Positions 7,149-39,683 of a DNA stretch of 64,000 bases are shown in pieces (positions within the stretch are counted from its first letter, which is position 1; each line of letters begins with the position of its first letter). The DNA comes from a candidate division FCPU426 bacterium (GTDB lineage: Bacteria; Oederibacteriota; Muellerivitia; Muellerivitales; Muellerivitaceae), in the NCBI GenBank assembly GCA_963847625.1, contig CAWKAR010000060.1, positions 64,001-128,000 on the forward strand, written 5' to 3'. A program made the position numbers and the translations under genes. The notes beneath the pieces were generated by a model. That model did no database searches and was not told where the DNA came from. It worked only from the letters and a program-made list of their open reading frames with translations.

Positions 7149-7703
7149 ATGAGGGAAGAATTTCACTTCAGGGGTTCGGGAGGACAGGGCATCCTGCTGA
7201 TGGGGCTCGTGCTGGCTCATTCGGCCCTCAAGGAAGGCCTGCACGTGTCCTGGATCCCCTCCTACGGCGCCGAGCGCCGGGGCGGGCCCTCCTTCTGCGC
7301 GGTCACGGTTTCGGATGAACCCGTGGATTGCCCGCTGACGGACCAGCCTACGTTGCTTTTCACCATGGATCTACGCGCGGCCCGCGCCTATGCACCTTCC
7401 CTGCGACCGGACGCCATCCTGGTTTACAACTCGACGATGGTTTCCGAGCCGCCCGCGGGAAGTTTCAAGGCTTACGGAGTGGAAGCTTCAAGCCTGGCTG
7501 CCGAGGCCAAGCTGGCTCAAGCGGCCAACATGGTGGCCCTCGGAGCGGTTCTGGCGGTCAAGCCCGTGGTGAAACTGCCCACAGTGGCCCAGGCCCTGCC
7601 CACGGTGTTGGGCGACCGCAAGAGCCACCTGGCGCCGGCCAATTTCCACGTGCTGGAATCCGGCTTCAAGGCCGTCCGCCCCTTTTCCCCCGCAGGACAC
7701 TAA
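7149..7703 (+). CDS. 2-oxoacid:ferredoxin oxidoreductase gamma subunit
   Basis: GSGGQG, PSYGAERRGG, NMVALGA. Confidence 0.93.
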   Translation: MREEFHFRGSGGQGILLMGLVLAHSALKEGLHVSWIPSYGAERRGGPSFCAVTVSDEPVDCPLTDQPTLLFTMDLRAARAYAPSLRPDAILVYNSTMVSEPPAGSFKAYGVEASSLAAEAKLAQAANMVALGAVLAVKPVVKLPTVAQALPTVLGDRKSHLAPANFHVLESGFKAVRPFSPAGH

Positions 7704-22728: not shown

Positions 22729-24549
22729 ATGGGTAAAATCAAAAAACTCCCGGAAAACATCATTAATCAAATCGCCGCGGGTGAAGTCATTGAAAGGCCC
22801 GCATCCGTTGTCAAGGAATTCCTGGAAAACGCGTTGGACGCGGGCGCTAAAAACCTTGAAATAACCGTCCAAGAAGGGGGTCTTAAGCTCATCAAGGTTT
22901 CGGATGACGGGCAGGGCCTTTCTTCCGAAGACGCCCTTCTTTCGATTCAAAAACACGCCACCAGCAAAATATTTTCCTTGGAAGATTTATCGAACATCCA
23001 ATCTTTTGGTTTCCGGGGGGAAGCCTTAGCCAGTATTGCTTCTGTTTGCCATTTTGAAATGACCTCCAGGGAAACCGGAACCCTTTCCGGATTCAGCGTC
23101 AAGGTCAAGGGGGGAGGTAAAATTCAAACCCAAGAAATGGGAAGGCCCGAGGGAACTACCGTTATCGCCGCCAACTTGTTTTTCAATACCCCCGCCCGGC
23201 TCAAATTCATGAAAAAAAAGGCGACAGAGGAAAATCACATTATTTCCGTGGTTTCAAATTACGCCTTGTCTTATCCCGGAAAAACCTTCAAGTTGGTCAT
23301 GGGGGGAAAGACCGTACTATCAACCACTCCGGTTGATTTAAAGGACAGGATCGGACAGGTCTTGGGAAAAGATATTGCCCGCTCCCTGGTCCCGGTCGGC
23401 TTTAAATCGGGAAACATCCAAATCCATGGGGCTGTGAGCCTTCCCACCATTACAAAACCCACCCGGGAAGGCATGCTTTTTTTCGTAAATCATCGTTGGA
23501 TTTCCAACCCCTCCATCGGCCATGCTGTCATGACTGCCTATCACACTTTATTGCCGACCAAGCGTTTTCCCATTGCGGTTTTATTTTTGGAGATTCCTCC
23601 GGATCAGGTGGACGTGAACGTTCATCCCACGAAAAAAGAGGTCAAGTTCGCCAGGGACCGCGAGGTTTATGACGCGGTTGTGGCCGGCGTCAGGGGAGGG
23701 ATTCTTTCATCTTCAAATCCAAAAACGGGCTTCGCAACAATTGATATCCAAAAACCGATTCATTATTTTTCAGTTGATCAAGGTCCGGCTGCGGTTCTGG
23801 AAAAAAGCTTGTTGTTCAAAAATGAAAACAGGGCCGAGCAAAATAACTCTCAGCATGGATTTTTGCCGGCTCCTCTATTGGGAGACAGCCCCGAAAAGAC
23901 ATCAACAACCCCGTTTTTCACTAAAGGGGAACAAACTCCGCGGCGGATTGATCCTGGCATCCAGCTTTACAACTTCACGCAACTCTTTAACACCTTTATC
24001 ATTTTTCAGTCTGATACGGAAATGTTCATCGCGGACCAACACACGGTTCATGAACGGATAAATTATGAACGTTTAATGAATAGTTTGGCCCAAAAAAGGT
24101 CGGAAATACAAACCCTCTTAGTGCCATTAACCCTTGAATTTAATCCCAAAGAGGCGGCCGCCTTAAAAAACAACCTTGAAATCCTGGCAGAACTCGGCTT
24201 GGAAATAACTCCGTTTGGCGGGAATACTTTTTTATTCTCCAGCGTCCCATCCGATTTGAAGGATAAAAACCTAATCCCCCTGTTGAAAGATTTGGCAGAC
24301 GAATTAACTTCCCAAGAAAACACCAATATTAATAATACTAATCGGCTGGCCCAGGTCCGCGAAAAAATAGCGACTTTTCTTTCGTGCCGAAGCGCAGTCA
24401 TGGCGGGGGACCGGCTCAACGACCTTCAAATGAAATCACTGATTGATCAAATGAGAAAAGCAAACCTTCCTTTTACATGTCCACATGGCCGTCCAACGAT
24501 TATTTCCATACCATTGTCAGACCTTTACCGCAAGTTCGACCGGCATTAA
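22729..24549 (+). CDS. mutL: DNA mismatch repair endonuclease MutL
   Basis: NQIAAGEVIERPASVVKE, GFRGEAL, DVNVHPTK, DQHTVHER, CPHGRP. Confidence 0.97.
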   Translation: MGKIKKLPENIINQIAAGEVIERPASVVKEFLENALDAGAKNLEITVQEGGLKLIKVSDDGQGLSSEDALLSIQKHATSKIFSLEDLSNIQSFGFRGEALASIASVCHFEMTSRETGTLSGFSVKVKGGGKIQTQEMGRPEGTTVIAANLFFNTPARLKFMKKKATEENHIISVVSNYALSYPGKTFKLVMGGKTVLSTTPVDLKDRIGQVLGKDIARSLVPVGFKSGNIQIHGAVSLPTITKPTREGMLFFVNHRWISNPSIGHAVMTAYHTLLPTKRFPIAVLFLEIPPDQVDVNVHPTKKEVKFARDREVYDAVVAGVRGGILSSSNPKTGFATIDIQKPIHYFSVDQGPAAVLEKSLLFKNENRAEQNNSQHGFLPAPLLGDSPEKTSTTPFFTKGEQTPRRIDPGIQLYNFTQLFNTFIIFQSDTEMFIADQHTVHERINYERLMNSLAQKRSEIQTLLVPLTLEFNPKEAAALKNNLEILAELGLEITPFGGNTFLFSSVPSDLKDKNLIPLLKDLADELTSQENTNINNTNRLAQVREKIATFLSCRSAVMAGDRLNDLQMKSLIDQMRKANLPFTCPHGRPTIISIPLSDLYRKFDRH

Positions 24550-27189: not shown

Positions 27190-29013
27190 TTGGCGGAAAC
27201 TAAACCTCAAAATCCAAAAGCTGCGCCTGATCCAGCCCCAATGCCAGTAACGATTGCTGCCACACCCACGGCGGTTCCGGAAAAAAATAAGTATTTAACT
27301 AAGATAAAAAGTTTTTTAACAACCACTATGTTTTTCATGTCGGGTTTTATTTTTATATTTCTGTCAATTTTAATGAAATATACCAGTTTGATTCCGGAAT
27401 CAGTCCAAACTTTCGTAAATCATTTTATTCCGCGATTGCTTTGGTTCATCGCTGGAATTGGGTTTATTCTTTTGGGGCAGGCAATGTTTTTGACTAGTAA
27501 GGAATATTCCGCTGAGTACAAAAATAATCGCAATTCACCTCATTCTTGGAAAATTCCTCTAATCTCAACACTTGGGTCGATTCTTTCTGTGGCCGGAGTT
27601 TATGGATTGTTGGTGAGTTTAAAAATATTCCCGGCAATTCAAAATATTATGGTTTTAATTTTTTTATTTCTTGTTTTTTGTTGTTATATTCTTTGGTATG
27701 TATTTGCACATTTGAAAAACCGTTATCCAACTATTGCCGGTCTTCGAGTGGGCATGGTTGCTTTTATTCTTTCATCCGTATCCTTTTTATCCTGGACCTG
27801 GACCCAATATGTTTTTTTAAGTCTTATTTTTGGCATTTTCGGAATCATTTCGGTAGTTGTAAGTTTAGTCCTGGTTCCTTTTGAAAAAGAAGAACAACGT
27901 GGGAATTGGCTAAGAATTTGTTGCATATTAATAAGCGTTATCTTTCTTTTATATGTTGGAATTAATTCCTTTTTTATTAATAAATCACATATTAATTTAG
28001 TAAATCTAGGTGCAGTCCAACAAAATATTGCTGGTAAAGTTGATAACCTTACCTATTCTCCCGATGGAAAAAAAATTGCCTTTTCACAAAAAGTGGGGAA
28101 GGAATGGTTCTTACAAGTTGTTGATCCGAAGAACCCACAATATAAAGTATTCAAGATTAAGGCTGGCGAAAATTCATTTCGACCAGTATTTATAGAAAAT
28201 GGTGGGTATATTTTAATTGATAGTGTTAATAACGGATTACGTAATATCTCGAAAATTAATGTCGGGAATGGTGCTTTAGTAAATATAACTTCTAGCGGAG
28301 TAGAAAAATTCGGTGATGGGATTCCTTGGTCAGAAACACGTAAAGAGTTTCTGTATGTTGTTCAAAATTCCAATTCATGGGAATTGAAAACTTTTTCCGC
28401 TTTAACTGGTAATTCAAACGTTCTTTTTGATTCCACTAAACCAATATTGACACCATCTTGGACTTCTTCTGGAAAGGTGGTTTACGCTGATTCCTATTCC
28501 GATCGCCCTTATATATTCGATTTAAATACAAAAACATCAAACCTTGTTATATCGGATGATGAAAAAACTGAACGCTTTCAGGAAAATAATAAAATAAAGT
28601 CCGGTATTCCTGTTGATGAAGTAATTCCGGCACCTGATGGTTTTCGATATCTCTATTTAACACGAAATTCCTCTAAAAACATTTCTTCAGTTTGGACAGT
28701 TTTTTCAGATGGGACTAAGGCTTCCAAGCTTTACGAAACAACAGGAGACATTAAATCTTTTTCATGGAATGCTGACTCACAACAAATTGTTTTTGAAGAA
28801 AGTTGTTCTCAAATGGGATTTTTTACTAAAATGAAAAATATAGAAATTCTTGACGCAAACCTCATGGAAATAAAATCCCTTCTTTTACCCCAAGTTTCCC
28901 ATTATTCTCCGGCCGTTTCTCCCGACGGTGTGAAAATAGCATTTGTGGGAAACCATAGTTTGTGGAATCCCTTAATTGGAAGTTCCGGAATTTGGATAGC
29001 TGTTCTACGTTAA
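27190..29013 (+). CDS. Multi-pass membrane protein with C-terminal TolB-like (PD40) beta-propeller
   Basis: About 7 TM helices, then YSPDGKKIAF ... SWNADSQQIVF ... VSPDGVKIAF repeats. Confidence 0.8.
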   Translation: MAETKPQNPKAAPDPAPMPVTIAATPTAVPEKNKYLTKIKSFLTTTMFFMSGFIFIFLSILMKYTSLIPESVQTFVNHFIPRLLWFIAGIGFILLGQAMFLTSKEYSAEYKNNRNSPHSWKIPLISTLGSILSVAGVYGLLVSLKIFPAIQNIMVLIFLFLVFCCYILWYVFAHLKNRYPTIAGLRVGMVAFILSSVSFLSWTWTQYVFLSLIFGIFGIISVVVSLVLVPFEKEEQRGNWLRICCILISVIFLLYVGINSFFINKSHINLVNLGAVQQNIAGKVDNLTYSPDGKKIAFSQKVGKEWFLQVVDPKNPQYKVFKIKAGENSFRPVFIENGGYILIDSVNNGLRNISKINVGNGALVNITSSGVEKFGDGIPWSETRKEFLYVVQNSNSWELKTFSALTGNSNVLFDSTKPILTPSWTSSGKVVYADSYSDRPYIFDLNTKTSNLVISDDEKTERFQENNKIKSGIPVDEVIPAPDGFRYLYLTRNSSKNISSVWTVFSDGTKASKLYETTGDIKSFSWNADSQQIVFEESCSQMGFFTKMKNIEILDANLMEIKSLLLPQVSHYSPAVSPDGVKIAFVGNHSLWNPLIGSSGIWIAVLR

Positions 29014-29046
29014 ACCGCTACCATTTCTCTTCCTAAAGAGCTAATA

Positions 29047-32000
29047 ATGAAGTCCGCTCTTTTTCATAAATTTCAATTTTTCATCGTTATTTGTATTTTC
29101 ATGACTCTTCATGCCAGGGCTGATCTTGATTTCGGTAACAATAAAGTTCGATATCATACCGATCACCATTGGAAAATTTTAGAAAGCCAGCACTTTGAGA
29201 TTTATTATTATAAAGAGTGTGAAGCCTTCGCTCATATTGCGGTTCAATGTGCTGAAAATGCATTTGTAAATACATGTAAAGTATTTGATTATGTTCCAAT
29301 AAATAAAATCCCCCTTTTTCTTTACGGAACCGGTCTGGAATTCCAAGAGACCAACATTACACCCGAAATTCTATCGGAGGGTGTCGGTGGTTTTACTGAG
29401 ATTTTTAAAAACCGAATATCCGTTCCCATCAATGGATCCTATTACGAATTTGAAAAAGTACTTCATCATGAATTAACCCATGCTTTTCAATACGATCTTA
29501 TTTATGGAGAAAGTTGGCGTTCAATTAATTTATTTAAATCGATTCTTGTACCCACTTGGATGATGGAAGGAATGGCCGAGTGGAATGCTCAACACCTTGA
29601 CGGACAAGGTGAAATGGTTTTAAGGGACGCAATCCTTAACGACCAAGTATTGCCGTTGAATATCCTCGAATCTTTTGACCACTTCGAACAAGTTTATATG
29701 GCATATAAGGAATCGCAGAGCATATTGGATTATATTTCCCAGCTATATGGTTCAGAAATAGTCGCTCAAATATTCAAAAAAATGGCAGTCAATCAATCTC
29801 CGGATACTGCAGTCAAAAATACCATTGGAATATCATTGGATGAACTTTATGAAAATTGGCATTTTTTTATAAAAAGCCAAACATGGTCAAGAATAAATGG
29901 ACTTCCAACACCTGAAAAATACGGGGAACTGATTGAAAAGGGAGCCACGAAGGCAACCGTTTCGCCTGATGAGATTGCTATAGCCTATATCAAGGGTGAA
30001 GATCTCATCCTATATAACCTCTCAAGTAAGACCAAAAAAGTGCTTACTCATAAAAAATTTGAAACACAAGGTTCAGGTATTGTCTGGTCACCAAATGGCA
30101 ATTATCTCGCCTTTTCAGCGGCACGAAATGGCGAATATAAACTTTCTATAATTGAAATTAAAAATCGTAAAATCCAAGAGTTTAACATGCCGAAATTACC
30201 GATAATTTACTCACCTTCTTGGTCACCCGACCAAAGATATATCATTTTTTCTGCTTTTGATTATTCAACTGTTGATCTTTATAGACTGGAATTTTCTACC
30301 GGTAAAATTGAACGTTTGACGAACAATTTAATTACAAAATCATGGGCGACCTATTCTCAGGACGGAAAAGTAGTGTATTTTTTGGGAGAAGACTCGGGAG
30401 AAACCAAAATATATCGTATGAACCTAAATGAGAAAGGGTTTACTCTGGTAAACCCGGAAATTGTTGGAAAAGATTTAGCGACTATTTCTTCTTTTCAAGT
30501 AATGAAGGACTCTATTTATTTTACATCTAATCGAAATAATAGAATTTTCAATTTATTTAAAATGAATCTGAATGGCGACCAATTGACACAGTTGACAAAC
30601 ACATATGTGGATGTGTTAAGTGTAGCCCCCTTGCCAAATAAGAAGGTATTTGTAACCCTTTATCAACATGCTCAGGTTGGTTTGTACTCTTTCCTGGCCG
30701 AAAAGCTCGATCAAAATACTCAACCACCAATTAATTTAAAATATTTGGCAAACTCATTTGAAAATGCTTCAAAAATACTAGCGAACAATCCGACTAAGAA
30801 CTTGATTAAAAAAGATGAAACAAAAGAAAAAATGAATATTTCAACTTTAGAAGATAGTCAAAACAAAAAAGAACCAGAAAAAACCCCGGAGCAAATAAGA
30901 AAGATAGAAGTAACTGATTCTTCAAATATTGTTCAACTTCAATGGCCGGTAACCACAGTGGAAGGAGGGGCGGAAATCGACAATTATCGAATTTATCGAT
31001 CTACTGATTCCGGGCAACATTTTATTTTTCTTGGTTCCACATCCAATTCACGCGATGGTAAATATACTGATTACAATGTTAAAAAAGGGGAATCATACTT
31101 CTATTATGTAACAGCAATAAATAAAAAAGGAGAAAGTCTACCTTCTCCCATTGTTCCCGCTATTCCTACTTTCAATCTTTCTTCAAGAGATTATCAATTC
31201 AAATTTACCCCGGACATTCTTTTACTTTTAGCGGGTTATGACAGTTCTGCGGGTTTTGTTGGGGGGGGTATTGCTCAATTCAGCGATTATCTCGGCGATA
31301 ACCGTTTAAGCCTAATTGGCGATACTGTCCCTGGCGTCGAAACTGGCATTCAAACGAATTATGAGTTTTCACCTTGGAGAACAACCATAGATCTGAACTA
31401 TTATTATTTTCAAAATTATCTGAATATTTATGACCTTCAAACCGGAAATATCGTTAACCAATATCGCAATAATGAAAACGGGATGGATTTAAATTTCAGT
31501 TATCCGTTGGATTCTTTTACTCGATTTGAATATGGCATTGGCACACAACGTTTTCAAGGCAACCCGTTATACCTTCAATTTTCAGAAGGGATTTCCAATT
31601 ATTCTCTAAATTCCGACCTGTGGAATGTGGCCAATTATTATCGCATTTCATTAGTTGAAGAAAAAAGAAAGGGAGAACGATTCTGGCCTAGCAATGGATA
31701 CGCTTTTAATTTTACCCTCTTGCACGCGCTTCCGGTTTTAGATTCAAATGTTTCATTTGCAAATATTCTTTTTGAAACTCAAGTCTTCGCGGATATAAAT
31801 TTTTTAAATCATCTAGTGTGGGCTAATCGAATTATCGGGATGACATCCCAAGGCCCGAATCCCCAGTCGTTTTTTATTGGTAACGATGAACTTTTTCAAG
31901 CTTACTTTACTACTATCCGTGGTTACGGCAATAAAACTTTTTTCGGTAGTAACCTAGCGCTTTTGAATACCGAGTTAAGATATCCTATTGCAAACAACAT

Positions 32001-32256
32001 GAATTTTTTATTACAACCACTTTCATTTGTCATGATTAAAGATATTGAGCTAGCTGGTTTCGTGGATAACGGAATCATGGCTGACCAACTTCAAAATATG
32101 GCAAAATCACCCCTTTTGTGCAGTATCGGAACTGGGTTGCGTTTTTACACTTTTCTCTACCAACGAGCGCTGGTTATGCTCCGTTTTGATGTTGCCTGGC
32201 GGTTGGACGGGTCATATCCACCAACCTTTCATTTTAATTTAGCGCCGATATTTTGA
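29047..32256 (+). CDS. Zn-metallopeptidase + PD40 propeller + FN3 + Omp85/BamA-like barrel fusion
   Basis: Signal peptide, HHELTH and WMMEGMAE, WSPD repeats, FN3 (YRIYRS..YFYYVTA..GES), IRGY lid-like motif, ELRYP, GTGLR, terminal F. Confidence 0.85.
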   Translation: MKSALFHKFQFFIVICIFMTLHARADLDFGNNKVRYHTDHHWKILESQHFEIYYYKECEAFAHIAVQCAENAFVNTCKVFDYVPINKIPLFLYGTGLEFQETNITPEILSEGVGGFTEIFKNRISVPINGSYYEFEKVLHHELTHAFQYDLIYGESWRSINLFKSILVPTWMMEGMAEWNAQHLDGQGEMVLRDAILNDQVLPLNILESFDHFEQVYMAYKESQSILDYISQLYGSEIVAQIFKKMAVNQSPDTAVKNTIGISLDELYENWHFFIKSQTWSRINGLPTPEKYGELIEKGATKATVSPDEIAIAYIKGEDLILYNLSSKTKKVLTHKKFETQGSGIVWSPNGNYLAFSAARNGEYKLSIIEIKNRKIQEFNMPKLPIIYSPSWSPDQRYIIFSAFDYSTVDLYRLEFSTGKIERLTNNLITKSWATYSQDGKVVYFLGEDSGETKIYRMNLNEKGFTLVNPEIVGKDLATISSFQVMKDSIYFTSNRNNRIFNLFKMNLNGDQLTQLTNTYVDVLSVAPLPNKKVFVTLYQHAQVGLYSFLAEKLDQNTQPPINLKYLANSFENASKILANNPTKNLIKKDETKEKMNISTLEDSQNKKEPEKTPEQIRKIEVTDSSNIVQLQWPVTTVEGGAEIDNYRIYRSTDSGQHFIFLGSTSNSRDGKYTDYNVKKGESYFYYVTAINKKGESLPSPIVPAIPTFNLSSRDYQFKFTPDILLLLAGYDSSAGFVGGGIAQFSDYLGDNRLSLIGDTVPGVETGIQTNYEFSPWRTTIDLNYYYFQNYLNIYDLQTGNIVNQYRNNENGMDLNFSYPLDSFTRFEYGIGTQRFQGNPLYLQFSEGISNYSLNSDLWNVANYYRISLVEEKRKGERFWPSNGYAFNFTLLHALPVLDSNVSFANILFETQVFADINFLNHLVWANRIIGMTSQGPNPQSFFIGNDELFQAYFTTIRGYGNKTFFGSNLALLNTELRYPIANNMNFLLQPLSFVMIKDIELAGFVDNGIMADQLQNMAKSPLLCSIGTGLRFYTFLYQRALVMLRFDVAWRLDGSYPPTFHFNLAPIF

Positions 32257-32411
32257 TTACAAAATCCCATCGTGATAAAAACAAGTTGGTTCAATAGTAT
32301 GGAACCGTTATAATACTTCCGGGTTTGTTGAACAATTTCATTGTAAGGTTATGCTGCTCTAAAAACCCAGTAAATCAGTTTTAATCATTCATTAAATTTT
32401 GAGGTTATTCA

Positions 32412-33032
32412 GTGAAAAAACTTCTCCTATTCATTCTTCTAAGTTTTTTGATTTTTCCTCTTTTCGCAGGTGTTTCAGTATCAAAATTTAACATTTCTGA
32501 TTACGCAATGGTTAATCTTGATTTTTTGAGGACTCATTACCAGGAAATAAATAACGGCAGATCAATCCAAATTGATGCGAATTTCTTAAACCTAAAATGG
32601 AAATCTCCCTTTGAATATAGGGAGCGATTAAAAGAAATTGGTTTAAATGTAAATAAATATAATGTCATTGAATTTACATTAAAAGAAAAAGACAATGTTC
32701 ATTATTCCTTTCCAAATCTTCTTTTTCACACGGAGTCAGGCGACCTTCACGAATTAAGTTCCCTTGTAAAAGGAGAAAGAATTATCGTTTATGGTAAATT
32801 TTATAAATTAAAAAAGTCTGAATATGTTATTGATGTGGATTTGATGGAAGTCATATTAAAAGGTGGTCATAACCGAAACTTCCTTATTGATTCCAGAATC
32901 GCTCCAACTCCAACATCTGTTCCCACAAGTACTCCTACTCCAGGTTTAAATTTATGGCAAAAATTAAATAATTTTGTCAATCCCAAGGAAACTCCAACTA
33001 TTACTGGTACTGTAACCCCCACCGTTCAATAG
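32412..33032 (+). CDS. Secreted hypothetical protein, possible OB-fold
   Basis: Signal peptide, L.KGERIIVYGK motif, Pro/Thr-rich tail. Confidence 0.6.
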   Translation: MKKLLLFILLSFLIFPLFAGVSVSKFNISDYAMVNLDFLRTHYQEINNGRSIQIDANFLNLKWKSPFEYRERLKEIGLNVNKYNVIEFTLKEKDNVHYSFPNLLFHTESGDLHELSSLVKGERIIVYGKFYKLKKSEYVIDVDLMEVILKGGHNRNFLIDSRIAPTPTSVPTSTPTPGLNLWQKLNNFVNPKETPTITGTVTPTVQ

Positions 33033-33124
33033 AAAAATTATTTAAAAAATAAACCTAACTGCTATTCAAAAATAATCTTTCTAATAATCACCCATTTAAC
33101 CCATAAACTTCTTAAAGTAAAACT

Positions 33125-34179
33125 GCCGAATTCACGGAGTAAGTGCAACACTTCGCCGGAAGACTTCCGCCGGAGTTTTAAAGCCCAAACATTTCCTGGG
33201 CCTGTTATTGAGCCATCTTTCTATGGTCCTGAATTCTTTGAAGGACACTTTAGCAAGATCAGTCTTTTTAGGCAAATGGCGGCGGACAAGACCGATAGTA
33301 TTTTCCACCGTACCTTTTTCCCAACTGTGGAAAGGGGCGCAGAAAAAGGATTTTGTACCAAGCACGTGGTTGGTTTCCAAGTGGTTGGTGTTTTCGGTTC
33401 CGTTGTCATAGGTCAGACTCAGGCGGGCGTCTTGAGGGAAGCGGCATAAAGCGCGGTTGAGGCTATGACTCATTTGGCGAGCGGTCTTTCGTTTGAGCTT
33501 TCCCAACTTGGAAAAACGGCTTTGACGCTCGACGAGAGCCCGCATAGCAACTTTACTCTGACGAGAGACCATGGTGTCGGTTTCCCAATGGCCGAATTGC
33601 TTGCGTTGATTGGCGATCTCGGAGCGCTTATCGATGGAAACACGGCCTGGGATATGGTTTTTGGCGTGCTTACGGCTGTGGCCAAATGAGAATCGTCGCC
33701 GGTGGTGTCGAACTAGGCAAGGAATCAGCTCAGTGGCTTCAGCATAAACCCACTGATAGATAGCTTCAGGACCAATGGTTTGCTTAGGCCGTAGGTGACC
33801 TAATCGACCTGAAATGAGTTCTGGAGACCAGCCTCGTTTCAATTGACGACGGACGTAGGCACGAATTCGTTTTGTTTTCAGGCGTAAACGGCGTGCTCGT
33901 TGTTGGTTGCGGTCAACATACCGTTGATGGGCTCGATGAGAAAGATAATAACCAGAACGGATAGGGGGAGCATTGCGCTTGAGTTCCCTGGAGAGGGTGG
34001 AAGGAGACCTCTTCAAGGCGCGTGAAATTGCTCGAAGGCTAAGACCCTTTCCTTTCAAGACGGATAAATGATCTCTTTCTTCAACGCTTAAATGCTTGTA
34101 TTTCTTTTTCATAGCCGCATATCCTATTCATGCGGCCTTCTTCAGACACTAAGTGTTGCACTTACTTATGGAACTCGGG
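33125..34179 (-). mobile_element. IS30-family insertion sequence (1055 bp)
   Basis: Imperfect terminal IRs with a 16-bp perfect core AGTAAGTGCAACACTT (33138-33153 / 34151-34166); ACT repeated at 33122-33124 and 34180-34182. Confidence 0.9.
33132..34112 (-). CDS. IS30-family transposase
   Basis: HTH R.PSTLSREL.RN, WSPE.I, GHWETD, TYDNGTE, WEKGTVEN, LNNRPRKCLGFKTP. Confidence 0.95.
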   Translation of the reverse strand: MKKKYKHLSVEERDHLSVLKGKGLSLRAISRALKRSPSTLSRELKRNAPPIRSGYYLSHRAHQRYVDRNQQRARRLRLKTKRIRAYVRRQLKRGWSPELISGRLGHLRPKQTIGPEAIYQWVYAEATELIPCLVRHHRRRFSFGHSRKHAKNHIPGRVSIDKRSEIANQRKQFGHWETDTMVSRQSKVAMRALVERQSRFSKLGKLKRKTARQMSHSLNRALCRFPQDARLSLTYDNGTENTNHLETNHVLGTKSFFCAPFHSWEKGTVENTIGLVRRHLPKKTDLAKVSFKEFRTIERWLNNRPRKCLGFKTPAEVFRRSVALTP

Positions 34180-34432
34180 ACTTTAACTAATTCATAAAAT
34201 CATTTATTTCAAAACAATACCAAAGAGTCATACATTTTCAACAATACCAAAATTCTATTTATTCTCATCTTTTGTTGTCCTTTATAAACTTTAAAGATCA
34301 ATAGGGAAGAACACTATTAAATTTTGACTCAGGTATACCTTTTTCTAACATCAGATGAAGTGTTTTAGAACGTTTGTACACAAAGTGAAAATGAATCCCT
34401 GACCTTCCCCCAATGTTTGATCCAAATTTAAG

Positions 34433-35263
34433 TTAGTTAAGGCCCAACTTTTCGGCCTTTGCTTCCATTGGGGTTTTTCCCCCCAAACTGCTGTGCGGTC
34501 TCTGCCAGTTATACACCTGCCTCCACCAATCCACGACTACCTGGGCCTCCGCTTTTGAAAGAAAAATTTCTTGGTTCAGGCACTCATCCCTAAACTTTCC
34601 GTTGAAACTTTCGATGAATCCATTCTGCCATGGACTCCCTGGTTCGATATATAGCACCTCTACGCCCTTCTCCTCAAGCCAGTTCCTCAGTTCTTTCGCC
34701 ACGAACTCTGGCCCGTTGTCCACCCGCAGGCACTTTGGTGTCCCGTACTCCGTCATCAACTCGTCCAGCGTCTCCAGCACGTCCCGGCTTCTCATTCGCT
34801 TCTCCGCCCGGATCTCCAAGCATTCCCTAAATCCTTCATCCAACACCGTCAAAAACTTCACCTTTCCCCCGAACCATGTCAGGTCATGCACGAAGTCCAT
34901 CGTCCACACCTCGTTGGAACCCAAAGCCGGGTGGGGCCTTCTCCATTCCGTCGGAACCCTCTTCTTCCTGGGTCTCCTGCGCGGTAATTGAAGCCCTGCT
35001 ACCTGGTAGAGCCTCTCCACCCGCTTGTGATTCACATCAAGGCCTCTGCGTTCCAACATCCACAACATCCGAGGGCTTCCGAAACGTCGGTTTCTTTGCG
35101 CTAACTTAACCATTTCCTGCAGGATCACCTGGTTCAACGGATCTTCTGGCTGGGCCTCATATCGAAAACTCGATCGATTTACCCCAAGAACATCACAGGC
35201 TCGTCTTTCCGGTACTTCCTGAGCCTTCAGGGCTTCCACCATGCCTTTTTGCTCCTCGATCAA
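34433..35263 (-). CDS. IS3-family transposase OrfB (DDE integrase core)
   Basis: WTMDF, VDNGPEF, PGSPWQNGFIESFNG, YN..RPHSSLG. Confidence 0.95.
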   Translation of the reverse strand: MIEEQKGMVEALKAQEVPERRACDVLGVNRSSFRYEAQPEDPLNQVILQEMVKLAQRNRRFGSPRMLWMLERRGLDVNHKRVERLYQVAGLQLPRRRPRKKRVPTEWRRPHPALGSNEVWTMDFVHDLTWFGGKVKFLTVLDEGFRECLEIRAEKRMRSRDVLETLDELMTEYGTPKCLRVDNGPEFVAKELRNWLEEKGVEVLYIEPGSPWQNGFIESFNGKFRDECLNQEIFLSKAEAQVVVDWWRQVYNWQRPHSSLGGKTPMEAKAEKLGLN

Positions 35264-35529
35264 TACCCCTTTTTTTTTATGTGCTCTTGGAGAACCTGAA
35301 TAGCCAGGGCCTGATCACCCGCTAACTGCTTGAGTTTCCGGTTTTCTTCTTCCAGCTGTTTGATGCGGTGGACTTCGGAAACTCCAAGGCTTCCGTACAT
35401 GCGTTTCCAGCGGTAGTAAGTCTGCTCGGAAATGCCATGCTTTCGGAGAACTTCCTCAACGGCGGGAGCTTTCTCCGCCTCGCGGAGAATAGCCACTATC
35501 TGCTCAGATAAAAACCGTTTCTTTGCCAT
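35260..35529 (-). CDS. IS3-family transposase OrfA
   Basis: EQIVAILRE..HGISEQTYYRWK..LEEEN.KLK; ends in an A9-G4 slippery run. Confidence 0.95.
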   Translation of the reverse strand: MAKKRFLSEQIVAILREAEKAPAVEEVLRKHGISEQTYYRWKRMYGSLGVSEVHRIKQLEEENRKLKQLAGDQALAIQVLQEHIKKKGY

Positions 35530-35798
35530 CTTTCCCCTCCCGATCTATAATCCAAAACTAACATATTTTTGGATCAGTTTTCGGGGGAAAGGTCATCCCT
35601 TCCTTTTAAAATCTTTCAAAAGAACACCCTTTAAATAAAAAAACAGGGCATTTTTACTGATTTAAATTCAGACGATGGATGAATGTTTATAAAACCGTTA
35701 TCGAAGGCATCGTTAGCATTGGTAAATATAGATTTAAGGTTGATGGGTTGAGACATTCATTATGTTTAGTCAAAATTTTCCGCATCGCTAAGAACATC

Positions 35799-36836
35799 TT
35801 AGGACTTGCGGTTCATCGAGCGATATTTATCCAAGACAGAGGCGACACCCTGATTTATTACGAGATTTAATAAATGGGACCCAGAAACATTTTCAAAGGC
35901 CCGGCGATGTGCTTGAAGAGTTTTGGTAGAAGCTAACTTGACATAATTCTCACTAACCATAATGCTGGAATGACCCATTAAATCCCGGATTTCGTAAACA
36001 CTGGCTCCTGATTCAGCCAACTGGGTACCAAAAGAATGTCTTAAAACATGGACCGTAAGCTCTTCTGGATTTTCCAACTTTGCCCACTGAGCTGCTTTTT
36101 TGACCCACCTCTCAAGGTAATCTGGGTGAATGGGTTTTTGTTCACTTCGTGGGCTTGTGAAAAGATGAACAACATCCTTTTTAATTTGTTTCAGGTAAAG
36201 TTTTAAAAGCTCCTTTAGAGTCTCAGTCATGGGTACCATTCGTTCCTTGTCACCCTTGCCGATAACCGTAAGCAGGCCTCGTGTTAAATCCAAATCCCGG
36301 ATTCTCAGATGTGCGATCTCAGAAACCCGAAGACCACAGTGGAAGCCCAGGAGTATGGTCAGGCTGATTTTTTGTGCCTCTAAATCGTCCATTTGGAGGC
36401 TTCGAACCAGGGCCTCACGATCCTTAGGTGGCAATGGGCGAGGATTACGCTGGGGGCTACGAATAGCAAAATTGTGAAAGACTGCCGTAGGATCCGTTGC
36501 AATATGCTGGATGGAAGCCAGATAACGATAAAAGGAGCGGGTAGAGGCTAGAATGCGCCTCATGGTACGCGTGGAATAAGCCTTTCTTGGTTTGCCGCTG
36601 GGAGTAATTCCGGGTTTTGTCAAAGAAGCTGCAAAGTGAACCATGTGTTCAGGTTGGACATGTAAAGGCGTTGCTATGTTAGAAATGTCAAAAAATTGTT
36701 TCAGGATTCGAAGATCCTGATGATAATTTTCCTTAGTGTGTGAAGATTTGCAAAGTGACAAGAAACCATCGTATGGCTTTAATTCAAAAAGGTTTTGGGA
36801 AATATTTCCTATTTTTTTTTCTAGTTTTGATTTCAT
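35799..36836 (-). CDS. Tyrosine recombinase, Xer-like
   Basis: SAM-like N-domain (RRILASTRSFYRYL); catalytic R (GLRVSE), K (GKGDKER), HVLRH, GH and Y (SENY). Confidence 0.92.
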   Translation of the reverse strand: MKSKLEKKIGNISQNLFELKPYDGFLSLCKSSHTKENYHQDLRILKQFFDISNIATPLHVQPEHMVHFAASLTKPGITPSGKPRKAYSTRTMRRILASTRSFYRYLASIQHIATDPTAVFHNFAIRSPQRNPRPLPPKDREALVRSLQMDDLEAQKISLTILLGFHCGLRVSEIAHLRIRDLDLTRGLLTVIGKGDKERMVPMTETLKELLKLYLKQIKKDVVHLFTSPRSEQKPIHPDYLERWVKKAAQWAKLENPEELTVHVLRHSFGTQLAESGASVYEIRDLMGHSSIMVSENYVKLASTKTLQAHRRAFENVSGSHLLNLVINQGVASVLDKYRSMNRKS

Positions 36837-36838
36837 TT

Positions 36839-36866
36839 ATTTGGTATAACTGCAATTATACCGAAT
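36839..36866. other. dif-like tyrosine recombinase site (11-6-11)
   Basis: ATTTGGTATAA-CTGCAA-TTATACCGAAT; arms are 10/11 inverted; has the ATAA-N6-TTAT core typical of dif sites; 2 bp upstream of the recombinase ATG. Confidence 0.8.
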
Positions 36867-37044
36867 AGCAATTGGACTGCAAGAGGTCTTTCCTTAAACT
36901 TCATTAATGCGATAAGGTACCGTTATTTCATTTTTAGCAAAGTAAATCGCACCTATTTTTAGCCGATTTTGCATTTAAAAGCTATTTTTTTAAACGATTT
37001 GCCAGAAGAATGAGGTTTTATACCTTTTCATTCGTAGTCTTAAA

Positions 37045-37818
37045 TTAGGTCGACTTTGATATAAACTCGTTTACGATATTTTGAAATTGGATAGGATTTT
37101 CTAGTGGTACCAAGTGACCAGCCTGCTCCATGACCTTCAATTGGCTATTGGGAATCGCTTTGGACATGGATTCTGCATCGGCTGCTGGTATTAATGAATC
37201 TTCATTGCCAGCTATCACTAAAACCGGGACCGTTAATCGCGACATTAGGTCGTTCTGGTCCCGTCTTTCGGCCATGGCGCGTTGGGCTAAGACGATGGCA
37301 ATGGGATCGACCATTTGGATCCAATGTTGCAGACGCTCAATAATTCTTGATTTATTAGCTAAAGTTGTCTTGCCCAAAAGCCCCGGAATCATGGCTGACG
37401 CCAAAAATTCCACGCCCTCTTTTTTCACCCGCTTAGCCATATTAAGGCGATTTTGTTTCGCTTCGGGTTTATCTAAACTTGGCCTTGTGGAAATAAAAAT
37501 TACTTTTAATATTTTATCCGGAAACTGGCGGATATACTCCATAGCCCAATATCCACCCATGGAAATGCCCCCTAACGTGATTGGTTCAGTCATTCCCCTC
37601 TCAAACAAGTGATTTTCAAGACCCTGCGCGGCTTCCGAGAGGGTTAAACCATTGGAGGGCGTGGATGAAAAACCAAATCCAGGAAAGTCAGGAAGAATCA
37701 ATCGGTAACCGGACGGGACTTTAAAATCTTGCCACATCAAGTGAGAAAGTGGGAAAGCATGTAAAAGAACAAGGGGTTTACCATTTCCAATGCTCATGGA
37801 CGATATAGTTGGGATCAT
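37045..37818 (-). CDS. Alpha/beta hydrolase
   Basis: LLHAFP, DFPGFG, nucleophile elbow GISMG, G.ED, GH. Confidence 0.92.
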   Translation of the reverse strand: MIPTISSMSIGNGKPLVLLHAFPLSHLMWQDFKVPSGYRLILPDFPGFGFSSTPSNGLTLSEAAQGLENHLFERGMTEPITLGGISMGGYWAMEYIRQFPDKILKVIFISTRPSLDKPEAKQNRLNMAKRVKKEGVEFLASAMIPGLLGKTTLANKSRIIERLQHWIQMVDPIAIVLAQRAMAERRDQNDLMSRLTVPVLVIAGNEDSLIPAADAESMSKAIPNSQLKVMEQAGHLVPLENPIQFQNIVNEFISKST

Positions 37819-37922
37819 ATTTAAAAAACCTTTTAAGAATAATTGATTTACTCATTAATGTTAAACTCATACTTTAAGAAATTGAAGTCATTTAGAGAAT
37901 TTATAAACATTTAATTAATACG

Positions 37923-38570
37923 TTAGTGATTTTGAAATTGGCATTTGTAGGTTGGATAAACATCATGCTTGAAAGTAACCCCGGATTCAAGCGAAGTAAT
38001 CCAAATTTTATTCCTTATAGGTGAAGTTCCGATTATAAGAAACTGTAAAACTTCATTTGTCATTAAACCAGCAAGTACTTTTTGAATTATTATGTTGTTC
38101 CCTATTCCGAATGCTTTAGTATTTAAAGTTTTAAAACATTGAAAACAAGGACAGGATTTTTGGTAATTAGTCAAATGGTAAATGATCAAGCTGTTTTCTG
38201 TAGTCCATCCCAAAAATACTGACTGAGGTTTCATTTGAGATATTTGTTTGATTTGTTCATTAAAATTTCTTTGATTTAAGAATGCGATTGCTGCTGAAAA
38301 TATCGGTAAGTTATCCATTTTGTATTTAAGAACTTGAATATGAACATCCGGAAACTGTTTAATGAAGGGTAAGGGACTAAAATCTGACTCTTTATTAACG
38401 AAAATGTTTTTAATACCGGTTGCCGAAAAAGCAGTTATCGCCGCTTTGAGTGCTATTTTTTCCCCCGCGATTAAAACAAAAACATCTCTCCACTTCTTTT
38501 GCCCTTCCTCGCTAATCTCAGGAATTATCAATTGCCGTGAGTAACGTTGATTCCAATTCGATTGATTCAT
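37923..38570 (-). CDS. Degenerate ThiF/MoeB-like protein
   Basis: RYSRQLIIPEISEEGQKK and CPCFQC present; GxGxxG absent. Confidence 0.7.
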   Translation of the reverse strand: MNQSNWNQRYSRQLIIPEISEEGQKKWRDVFVLIAGEKIALKAAITAFSATGIKNIFVNKESDFSPLPFIKQFPDVHIQVLKYKMDNLPIFSAAIAFLNQRNFNEQIKQISQMKPQSVFLGWTTENSLIIYHLTNYQKSCPCFQCFKTLNTKAFGIGNNIIIQKVLAGLMTNEVLQFLIIGTSPIRNKIWITSLESGVTFKHDVYPTYKCQFQNH

Positions 38571-38804
38571 TTTTTTCTTTCCATTAATCTTAGAAAGCCA
38601 TTTTAAGAAAAGACTTTTGAAACGATTTTTGTGATTTCCCTTTCAAGTTTTAACCGAAATGATAAGTAAATTCACACGATTTAAAACCATTTCCTGAAAT
38701 TTCCAAAACTTAACTTCTCAATAATTAAATGAGGTTTCTTCCAATATATAAACAATAGAGCGCGATTAAATACTAAGATAGAAACAAATTTACGAATTTT
38801 TCAT

Positions 38805-39683
38805 TTAATAACCCAAAAGAATTCCCGTTTCTATTGGAAGTACTATCAACGGACTATCAATTGAAGAAAAGTTAGCGAAATGTGTGCTTATGAAGTCTAT
38901 TGAAATTTTTCCTTGGATAAAAAATTTTGTATCTTCTCCGGCGTTGAGCGCTATACCTACTCCCCCTTCTATAAGAAAATCCACCTCGTTTGAGTTGACA
39001 GGGACATATAAAATATCATACGTTTCATCGAGTTGCGCAGTGTTGTCACTCCGGTATTCATTATAGGTAATACCCGGCCCTACGAAAATATAAGGGCAAA
39101 AATTTGATTGTGTTAATCGAGTTCTTATCCACAATGCAGCACCAACCATCATGAGATTGTTATTGTGAGTCAAAGTGTTGTTTTTCGCACTGAATTGGTT
39201 TAAAGCCAAATCCAGCCAAATTGAAAATTGTTTCGAGAACTGATATCCGCTTCCAAGATCAAAGACAAAAGAAGGACTATATGCTTTTTTGGTATTCATA
39301 CTAGGCGGTATTCCTAATCCAATACTAACAGTGGACATCCATTTTGACTCTCGTTTGGTTAAAACTGATTTATGGTGTTCCATGGACGGTCCCTCTGCCC
39401 ATAAAATTTCAGGTGCGGATGATAAAGGTGTCATAGTCGGCGTAAAGGGGCTAGATTTTGTTCCCGATAAACCGGGTGTTGGTAGGGACCCAGTAACCAT
39501 TGACGAAAATGTCGGCAATACAGTCATTGTTTCCGTTGGAGTGGGTTTTGGTTCATACGTAGGAATAAAAAGCACATTACCTGAATGAAGGATATTTAGA
39601 TTAAAGAAAAACCAGAAGCACAGAATGATCAGCGGCTTCAACAAACCAGTTGGATTTTTAAATGGTGAAATTTTATTCGTCAT
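38805..39683 (-). CDS. Probable outer-membrane beta-barrel protein with Pro/Thr-rich N-terminal linker
   Basis: ATG 39683 with GGAG; signal-like segment; PYIFVGPG and EGGVG strands; terminal aromatic residue. Confidence 0.6.
   Translation of the reverse strand: MTNKISPFKNPTGLLKPLIILCFWFFFNLNILHSGNVLFIPTYEPKPTPTETMTVLPTFSSMVTGSLPTPGLSGTKSSPFTPTMTPLSSAPEILWAEGPSMEHHKSVLTKRESKWMSTVSIGLGIPPSMNTKKAYSPSFVFDLGSGYQFSKQFSIWLDLALNQFSAKNNTLTHNNNLMMVGAALWIRTRLTQSNFCPYIFVGPGITYNEYRSDNTAQLDETYDILYVPVNSNEVDFLIEGGVGIALNAGEDTKFFIQGKISIDFISTHFANFSSIDSPLIVLPIETGILLGY

Follow-up and report, generated by a model that had tools for sequence, protein, structure and literature searches.

Can a single tyrosine recombinase gene, abutting a palindromic dif-like site, form by itself the chromosome dimer resolution system of a bacterial lineage, and does it take the place of XerC and XerD there? 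The question is raised by a locus in a 64-kb stretch of DNA (the window) from a bacterium of candidate division FCPU426, whose features are collected in Table 1. A first-pass annotation had claimed a full Xer-like recombinase with an R-K-HxxR-H-Y signature, and this holds: the 345-aa open reading frame contains all six catalytic residues (R170, K194, H263, R266, H289, and Y298), which are invariant in 37 aligned homologues. The protein combines a core-binding with a catalytic domain, has no arm-binding domain, and carries a family-specific hairpin insertion at about residues 75-85 as well as a C-terminal extension. In its predicted structure model, in which helix 238-251 has a pLDDT of 87, the best TM-score is 0.64, to XerH (20-21% identity), and archaeal XerA is the top Foldseek match. 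The recombinase stays below the XerC, XerD, XerS, and XerA cut-offs, reaching 161/335 and 146/330 bits with the XerC/XerD models, 86 bits against a cut-off of 267 with the XerS model, and 136 against 220 with the XerA model.

Table 1 Features of the recombinase-site module and its surroundings (window positions).
Feature	Position	Strand	Remarks
Xer-type tyrosine recombinase gene	35799..36836	minus	345 aa ORF; Pfam core-binding and catalytic domains
H-P-D-Y codons 237-240	36117..36128	minus	start of helix 238-251; co-vary with arm bases 5-6/23-24
dif-like site	36839..36866		11-6-11, arms 10/11 symmetric, asymmetric 6-bp spacer; putative crossover site
TATAAT -10-like hexamer	36855..36860	minus	predicted recombinase promoter; gene-distal arm plus first spacer base
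Weak -35 candidate	36877..36882	minus	16 nt before -10; 3/6 here, nearer consensus in relatives
Motif B, upstream copy	36961..37001	plus	~35-bp, bipartite, A/T-rich; reads away from site; from motif matrix
Motif B, downstream copy	35608..35648	minus	inverted relative to upstream copy; from motif matrix
Motif A	35720..35736	minus	degenerate here; fixed distance, mostly 88-89 bp, before downstream motif B
alpha/beta hydrolase gene	37045..37818	minus	conserved upstream neighbour (33/35 loci); synteny marker

An 11-6-11 site with 10/11 symmetric arms had also been described two bases from the ATG; its coordinates and arm pairing were checked and found correct, the site's end lying 2 nt ahead of the recombinase start codon. 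This degree of symmetry in 11-6-11 geometry is reached at just 167 of 4,429,135 genome positions. Uniqueness of the site and its presence beside orthologues had both been proposed as checks. When the genome was searched with the arms only (at most 5 mismatches in 22), the next best matches carried 4 mismatches, and the site was found upstream of the gene in all 30 genomes of the order with an assembled 5' end, as well as at 10 distinct metagenome loci. The 40 distinct sites derive from 46 distinct loci (51 less 5 duplicates), including two split genomes and the metagenome loci; among the six loci without a site, the 5' end is missing in five, and one is a relative of 40% identity in an operon-like setting. 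A reference-free search, which took the best 11-6-11 palindrome upstream of each gene and made no use of the query site, recovered the site in 26/28 loci, the remaining two holding degenerate sites of 7/11 and 8/11 symmetry.

Across the 40 sites, the same anatomy recurs, an intergenic, A/T-rich stretch of ~28 bp with two arms around a 6-bp asymmetric spacer, and symmetry is at least 10/11 in 34 of them. All sites share the inner ATA/TAT, and their outer arms form classes that switch on both arms together: 5.35 of 6 outer pairs match, compared with 3.0 +/- 0.25 after shuffling of arms among loci (never above 3.9 in 2000 shuffles). None of the 40 spacers is self-complementary, and 39 of them read either T....G (27) or C....A (12), which are one asymmetric spacer in two orientations. 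Asymmetry and pattern of the spacer thus fit a crossover site better than a bare operator. Each chromosome carries one copy, judged by the arms search in the window's own genome and by a core search across the family, in which palindromic arms were absent from all nine secondary matches fetched (and from three controls). A second copy bounding an island in the manner of attL/attR, another check that the annotation had named, was found neither in the own genome nor in relatives.

The site overlaps the predicted recombinase promoter. Its gene-distal arm reads TATAAT in 23 and TATAAC in 9 of the 40 sites, and the best -35 match 16-18 nt upstream averages 4.1/6 across the family, whereas the two controls, the opposite strand and other upstream windows, give 2.3 and 2.5; a generic promoter scan of the window did not list its own -35 candidate. 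In 23/40 loci, the distance between the start codon and the end of the site is between -7 and +2 nt. At the CA-class loci L008, L010, L016, and L184 the ATG sits inside the gene-proximal arm, implying a leaderless transcript. Occupancy of a site that covers the predicted -10 box and the start region would repress the recombinase gene. Autoregulation through the site has been speculated for xerS, according to excerpts of PMC1914069, and the module would support that idea, here with a visible -35/-10 fit. The same overlap, with a -35 at the right spacing and a close start codon at many loci, is also what one would see if the palindrome were an operator only, where the recombinase represses itself while recombining elsewhere or acting otherwise, and the co-variation of site and enzyme described below likewise speaks for binding rather than for strand exchange. 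For an operator, however, a terminus position (11/11 genomes) and conservation of an asymmetric 6-bp spacer (40/40) would be unnecessary, and we found no alternative dif candidate with a matching enzyme; we regard this explanation as quite unlikely.

The distribution of the module was surveyed in 61 genomes, 32 of them from the order (the window's genome, 30 others of its family, and 1 of a sister family) and 29 from outside. A close orthologue (54-76% identity) is present in single copy in 31/32 order genomes, namely the window's genome, 29/30 other family members, and the sole sister-family genome. The single genome without it is 63% complete, and two of the orthologue genes are split across contigs. 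Outside the order, a broader profile found no orthologue in 67 genomes of the phylum, and a scan of a genome collection with the family alignment returned just generic XerC/D from other phyla.

Whether the order has xerC/xerD together with a canonical dif had been raised as a further check. Order genomes were scored with the XerD model, which gives sister-class XerC 270-325 bits; its cut-off is exceeded in 0/32 of them versus 20/29 genomes elsewhere in the phylum, where 28/29 reach 270 bits or more, in most cases with two matches. In 9/31 family genomes there are sporadic recombinase pairs, usually of neighbouring genes, with 190-265 bits to this model; one such pair was placed in the tree, where it groups with a three-recombinase cluster, and we read these pairs as mobile. 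A canonical asymmetric dif with a TTATGTTAA-type XerD arm is seen in the outside genomes G042 and G140, and this is not the form of the 40 module sites. The own genome contains a single intergenic match resembling canonical dif (C11:1290), without a matching enzyme, and in relatives such matches are as frequent as reversed-pattern controls. Several genomes outside the order (L261, L262, L264; G032, G044, G050, G055, G060) contain a single XerC/D-level match and form a branch of their own; these genomes are perhaps incomplete, or candidates for additional unusual Xer systems.

The apparent terminus had been given as the location of the module. Genes on both sides of the site are oriented toward it on the own contig, the clearest such switch among contigs >40 kb, and in 11/11 genomes 78-94% of the coding bases within 20 kb are directed at the site. 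The order has no closed genome, and positions were judged on draft assemblies, among which G004 consists of five contigs. In G004, GC skew is positive in 9/10 samples left of the site and negative in 8/8 right of it, gene orientation flips at the site along with the skew, and on the second large contig gene orientation diverges at dnaA; ignoring three smaller contigs, the arcs measure ~1.37/1.36 or 1.58/1.15 Mb by the two possible joins. Among octamer types, GAAGGG[GA]A has the strongest leading-strand bias; in ten relatives 71 copies are directed at the site and 11 away from it, and on the own contig the counts are 24 and 6. GC skew of the own contig is weak and lacks a clean flip at the site: the cumulative maximum falls at 37.6 kb of the contig, and the site is found at 100.8 kb. 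The terminus call is based on gene orientation, polar octamers, and relatives rather than on the own GC skew.

FtsK with a gamma domain is present in 5/5 genomes. GyrA/ParC-family genes number one per genome in 5/5 (G000, G002, G004, G013, and G031), near dnaA where checked, and by this gene count topoisomerase IV appears to be absent from the lineage. With topoisomerase IV seemingly missing, the main job of the module might be decatenation of sister chromosomes, with dimer resolution secondary, a role that has been suggested for XerH as well (in the accessible part of PMC5357621). As this is compatible with a dimer resolution system and differs in emphasis only, we give it extremely little weight as an explanation of its own.

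We conclude, from comparative sequence evidence, that the module is very probably the one-enzyme Xer/dif chromosome dimer resolution system of the order, replacing XerC plus XerD. The annotation's reading of a self-contained single-Xer cassette of a possibly uncharacterised type is supported by the order-wide occurrence of gene and site and by XerD scores that stay below the cut-off. In the scheme we infer, two recombinase subunits would bind each site, one enzyme serving both arms; recognition of the conserved inner ATAA/TTAT would follow other Xer systems, and helix residues 237-240 would read the outer bases 5-6/23-24, which vary. Two sister sites would synapse as a homotetramer, strand exchange would proceed across the asymmetric 6-bp spacer, which would set its direction, and FtsK, with the polar G-rich octamers as its guide, is probably what sets off the reaction when the cell divides.

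Recognition of the outer bases was addressed with 38 full enzyme-site pairs. Residue 239 is the top single predictor of arm bases 5-6 (34/38 in leave-one-out), followed by Y240 (29/38), every other column reaching 26 or fewer. Counting either arm, D239 is paired with GG in 16/16, R239 with CA in 4/4, and N237 with AG in 7/7 cases; H237 plus H/N239 goes with TC in 11/13 left arms, the other two being hybrids that fit on the right arm. With residues 228-250 left out of the tree, these residue states require 4, 4, 5, and 8 changes, and independent pairs on well-supported branches follow the expected direction in 2/2, 3/3, 4/4, and 4/5 cases, with each test non-significant alone (2-5 pairs each, p 0.125-0.5). 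Residues 237-240 align with E. coli XerD R220/Q221, column 239 corresponding to Q221. R220 is a base-reading residue of XerD (PMC9226527), and Q221 is reported to contact dif position 24, positions 23-24 setting specificity (excerpts of PMC2731167). Two split genes were held out: G009 obeys the residue-base rule (HVDY with GG), G017 breaks it (D-P-R-T with a GAG, AG-type, arm), so that, with 1/2 held-out cases passed, the rule is incomplete. The four or five natural enzyme-site classes, among them HPDY/GG, HPHF/TC, HIRY/CA, NPNY/AG, and DPRT/GAG, could be used to probe outer-arm recognition by Xer enzymes, and they are candidate orthogonal recombinase-site pairs.

The module is bracketed by two inverted copies of a motif termed motif B, the sole strong ones in the own genome (44.5 and 50.5; next 26) according to a matrix trained on such module-adjacent copies. 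A fixed motif B pattern is found in 1-3 copies in 31/31 family genomes, in 0/1 of the sister family, and in 3/29 outside, reversed-pattern controls giving 0 in the family. All 62 adjacent copies read outward, as do 6/8 distal copies on the site's contig. Motif B is missing beside the gene in G004, G020, and G031, and in G004 and G020 copies occur solely away from it. Motif A, which we take to resemble an IHF site, lies 87-99 bp before 33/36 downstream copies and 96-108 bp before 10/17 copies of the distal set, and precedes 1/26 upstream copies; five HU/IHF-family genes are present. Helical phasing relative to the site is borderline for the upstream motif B (p ~0.05, post hoc, with kin that are not independent) and was not seen for the downstream copy.

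Polar sites oppositely oriented on either side of the terminus, as in the Tus/Ter or RTP/Ter fork traps, are what motif B provides, while Tus and RTP were each found in 0/5 genomes. Distal copies have no shared neighbour gene and hence point to no candidate binding protein. As a conserved terminus element, motif B may act as a fork trap, provide accessory sites in synapse formation, or serve for looping. A sigma-54 promoter was considered by eye and rejected: the GG-GC spacing is 9, in place of the 10 of the sigma-54 consensus, and there is no consistent downstream gene. Inward-pointing copies were seen twice, one an extra motif B at L238 (G012:C2:72195-72225), 2.2 kb from the site and just before the hydrolase start, the other at G004:C1:332638.

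A context free of phage, integron, and tRNA genes had been claimed for the locus. The 64-kb window indeed contains no tRNA, and Rfam yielded no real match over 33000-39000; the claim has to be amended in that an IS3 and an IS30 element lie directly downstream of the module at 33132-35529, just outside the downstream motif B. In 10 relatives neither element was found in the 20 kb on either side of the site, and they are therefore not part of the module. In G002 a close relative of the IS3 adjoins a distal motif B, and one is also found near the weak copy on C27. In the genus of G000 and G001, a small inversion across the terminus (window 27190-37818 compared with L141-L160) has flipped the hydrolase-site-xer unit with respect to a flanking p206/tolB-like block; the 9 further relatives that were checked have this block, usually with omp85, on the hydrolase side. 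On viral contigs, the family's protein motif was unmatched, the second arm class gave 0 matches, and a looser motif B search gave 39 matches, all <16 compared with 44-50 for real copies. A lone motif B match and a lone site match on such contigs were discarded, as they lie inside coding sequence of unrelated phages.

These data bear on another possibility, that the module belongs to a mobile element, now fixed and defective: the enzyme would be its integrase, the palindrome its attachment site, and the motif B copies its inverted ends, and chromosome dimers would not be resolved by it. An inverted motif B pair does bracket the unit, IS elements flank it here, and its nearest relatives include a recombinase at a prophage end in G010. 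Such an element is difficult to reconcile with one intact copy in 31/32 genomes at 54-76% identity and in conserved synteny, with the lack of a second site, of cargo, and of any XerCD found in the order, or with the three genomes in which motif B is missing beside the gene and the absence of true matches on viral contigs. We therefore consider it very unlikely and retain the chromosomal dimer resolution system as the preferred reading.

Where the enzyme came from was approached with trees of 147, 95, and 39 rows, computed under a simple model and unrooted in direction, with relatives picked as best matches of the family profile and with XerH, XerL, and verified archaeal XerA absent. A phylogeny with XerC, XerD, and XerS had been suggested by the annotation, and in all three trees the recombinase lies outside these three, the family grouping with divergent simple recombinases. 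SH-aLRT support is 97 for the branch holding known Xer proteins and 79-84 for the side of the family plus relatives. The AU test rejects a shared clade with XerS (p 0.0076 and 0.0057) and also grouping with XerD or XerC, the latter two constraints at the same time forcing labelled sequences into clades. The family profile gives XerD 163 bits, XerA 128 and 112, and XerH 62. The one-enzyme module is most likely of separate origin, and if so, a further separate origin of one-enzyme dimer resolution would stand beside those of XerS, XerH, XerL, and XerA. No publication on a one-enzyme module of this order was found among the literature matches listed, in which subscription journals are thinly covered.

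Genomic context is known for two of the relatives, P0145 and L183. P0145 is encoded at a prophage end in G010, beside exonuclease, endolysin, and tail genes. The prophage (G010:C20, L265-L266) extends from ~4400 to at least 30000; apart from this terminal recombinase, which falls in the same broad clade as the family, it encodes a 2311-aa protein and a tRNA-Met along with the tail genes and the endolysin. Domestication of the enzyme from a phage recombinase is plausible. Simple tyrosine recombinases have a subgroup called 'Cand', and a prophage recombinase among the nearest kin bears on the open question of host domestication of mobile-element integrases for dimer resolution (both in excerpts of PMC8138268). 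Searches gave no relative for the divergent homologue P0104, and named phage and plasmid records gave just ~26-31% matches. A bolder joint reading, which we offer tentatively and think unlikely to be right as a whole, is that the order swapped XerCD for an integrase derived from its own prophages and repeatedly re-tuned it via the 237-240 code, inside an undescribed terminus structure made of the polar motif B pair and a helically phased IHF-like partner site. Motif B would there be a fork trap independent of Tus and RTP, or a set of accessory sites licensing recombination and decatenation in cells that lack topoisomerase IV.

Single-enzyme systems known from the accessible parts of the literature are XerS, XerH, and XerA (PMC5357621) as well as XerL (PMC9765430). 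The closest parallel in layout is XerS/difSL of Streptococcus and Lactococcus, likewise one ~350 aa recombinase with its site immediately 5' of the gene, located at the terminus and standing in for XerCD in one clade (excerpts of PMC1914069 and PMC5357621). The difSL site differs in its 31 bp and unequal arms from the nearly symmetric 28-bp 11-6-11 module site (PMC1914069, in part). The module would work like XerS/difSL without belonging to the XerS family. XerH/difH of Campylobacterota shares a single recombinase whose gene is often near the site, in hosts apparently without topoisomerase IV (PMC2731167 and PMC5241119, in part). The difH spacers CTATAA and CTGTAA also occur among module spacers (PMC2731167 Table 2), whereas the arms read GAAAA/TTTTC in difH, going by the excerpted text of PMC2731167, and TATAA/TTATA in the module site; the difH arm sequence TGAAAA...TTTTCAAA is not matched by module sites, just the spacer being alike.

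XerL/dif of Legionellales, compared by its description in the accessible part of PMC9765430, resembles the module in a single recombinase forming its own clade and a perfectly symmetric site near the terminus, but XerL is longer (catalytic Y387 compared with Y298 in the module enzyme) and the genes flanking its dif vary, whereas gene and site are fused here. With XerC/XerD-dif of E. coli, B. subtilis, and the rest of the phylum, the module has in common the 11-6-11 geometry, the inner ATAA/TTAT, FtsK-gamma, the terminus, and the helix position that reads bases 23-24; it differs in having one enzyme, symmetric arms, and gene-site linkage, and scores far below both cut-offs. Archaeal XerA/dif also uses a single enzyme and inverted repeats around a 6-nt spacer and is sometimes gene-linked (excerpts of PMC8371274 and PMC5357621); unlike it, the module resides in a bacterial host with FtsK.

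Two observations concern other recombinases and sites met during the searches. Tandem double recombinases near the top of the profile matches were set aside, their scores probably being sums over two ordinary domains; many proteins of 600-870 aa (P0137, P0140, P0141, P0146-P0153, and others) consist of two complete tyrosine recombinase units in tandem, like a fused XerC-XerD. In G000, two dif-like 11-6-11 sites (G000:C55:22827-22854 and 23243-23270; L336:6828-6855 and 7244-7271) lie 416 bp apart around an 85-aa ORF, on an element that carries ParA, ParB, and a type IV coupling protein. They are 11/11 and 8/11 symmetric with related spacers in opposite orientation, the arms of one being identical to the CA class of other genera, and could be pdif-like module sites or operators.
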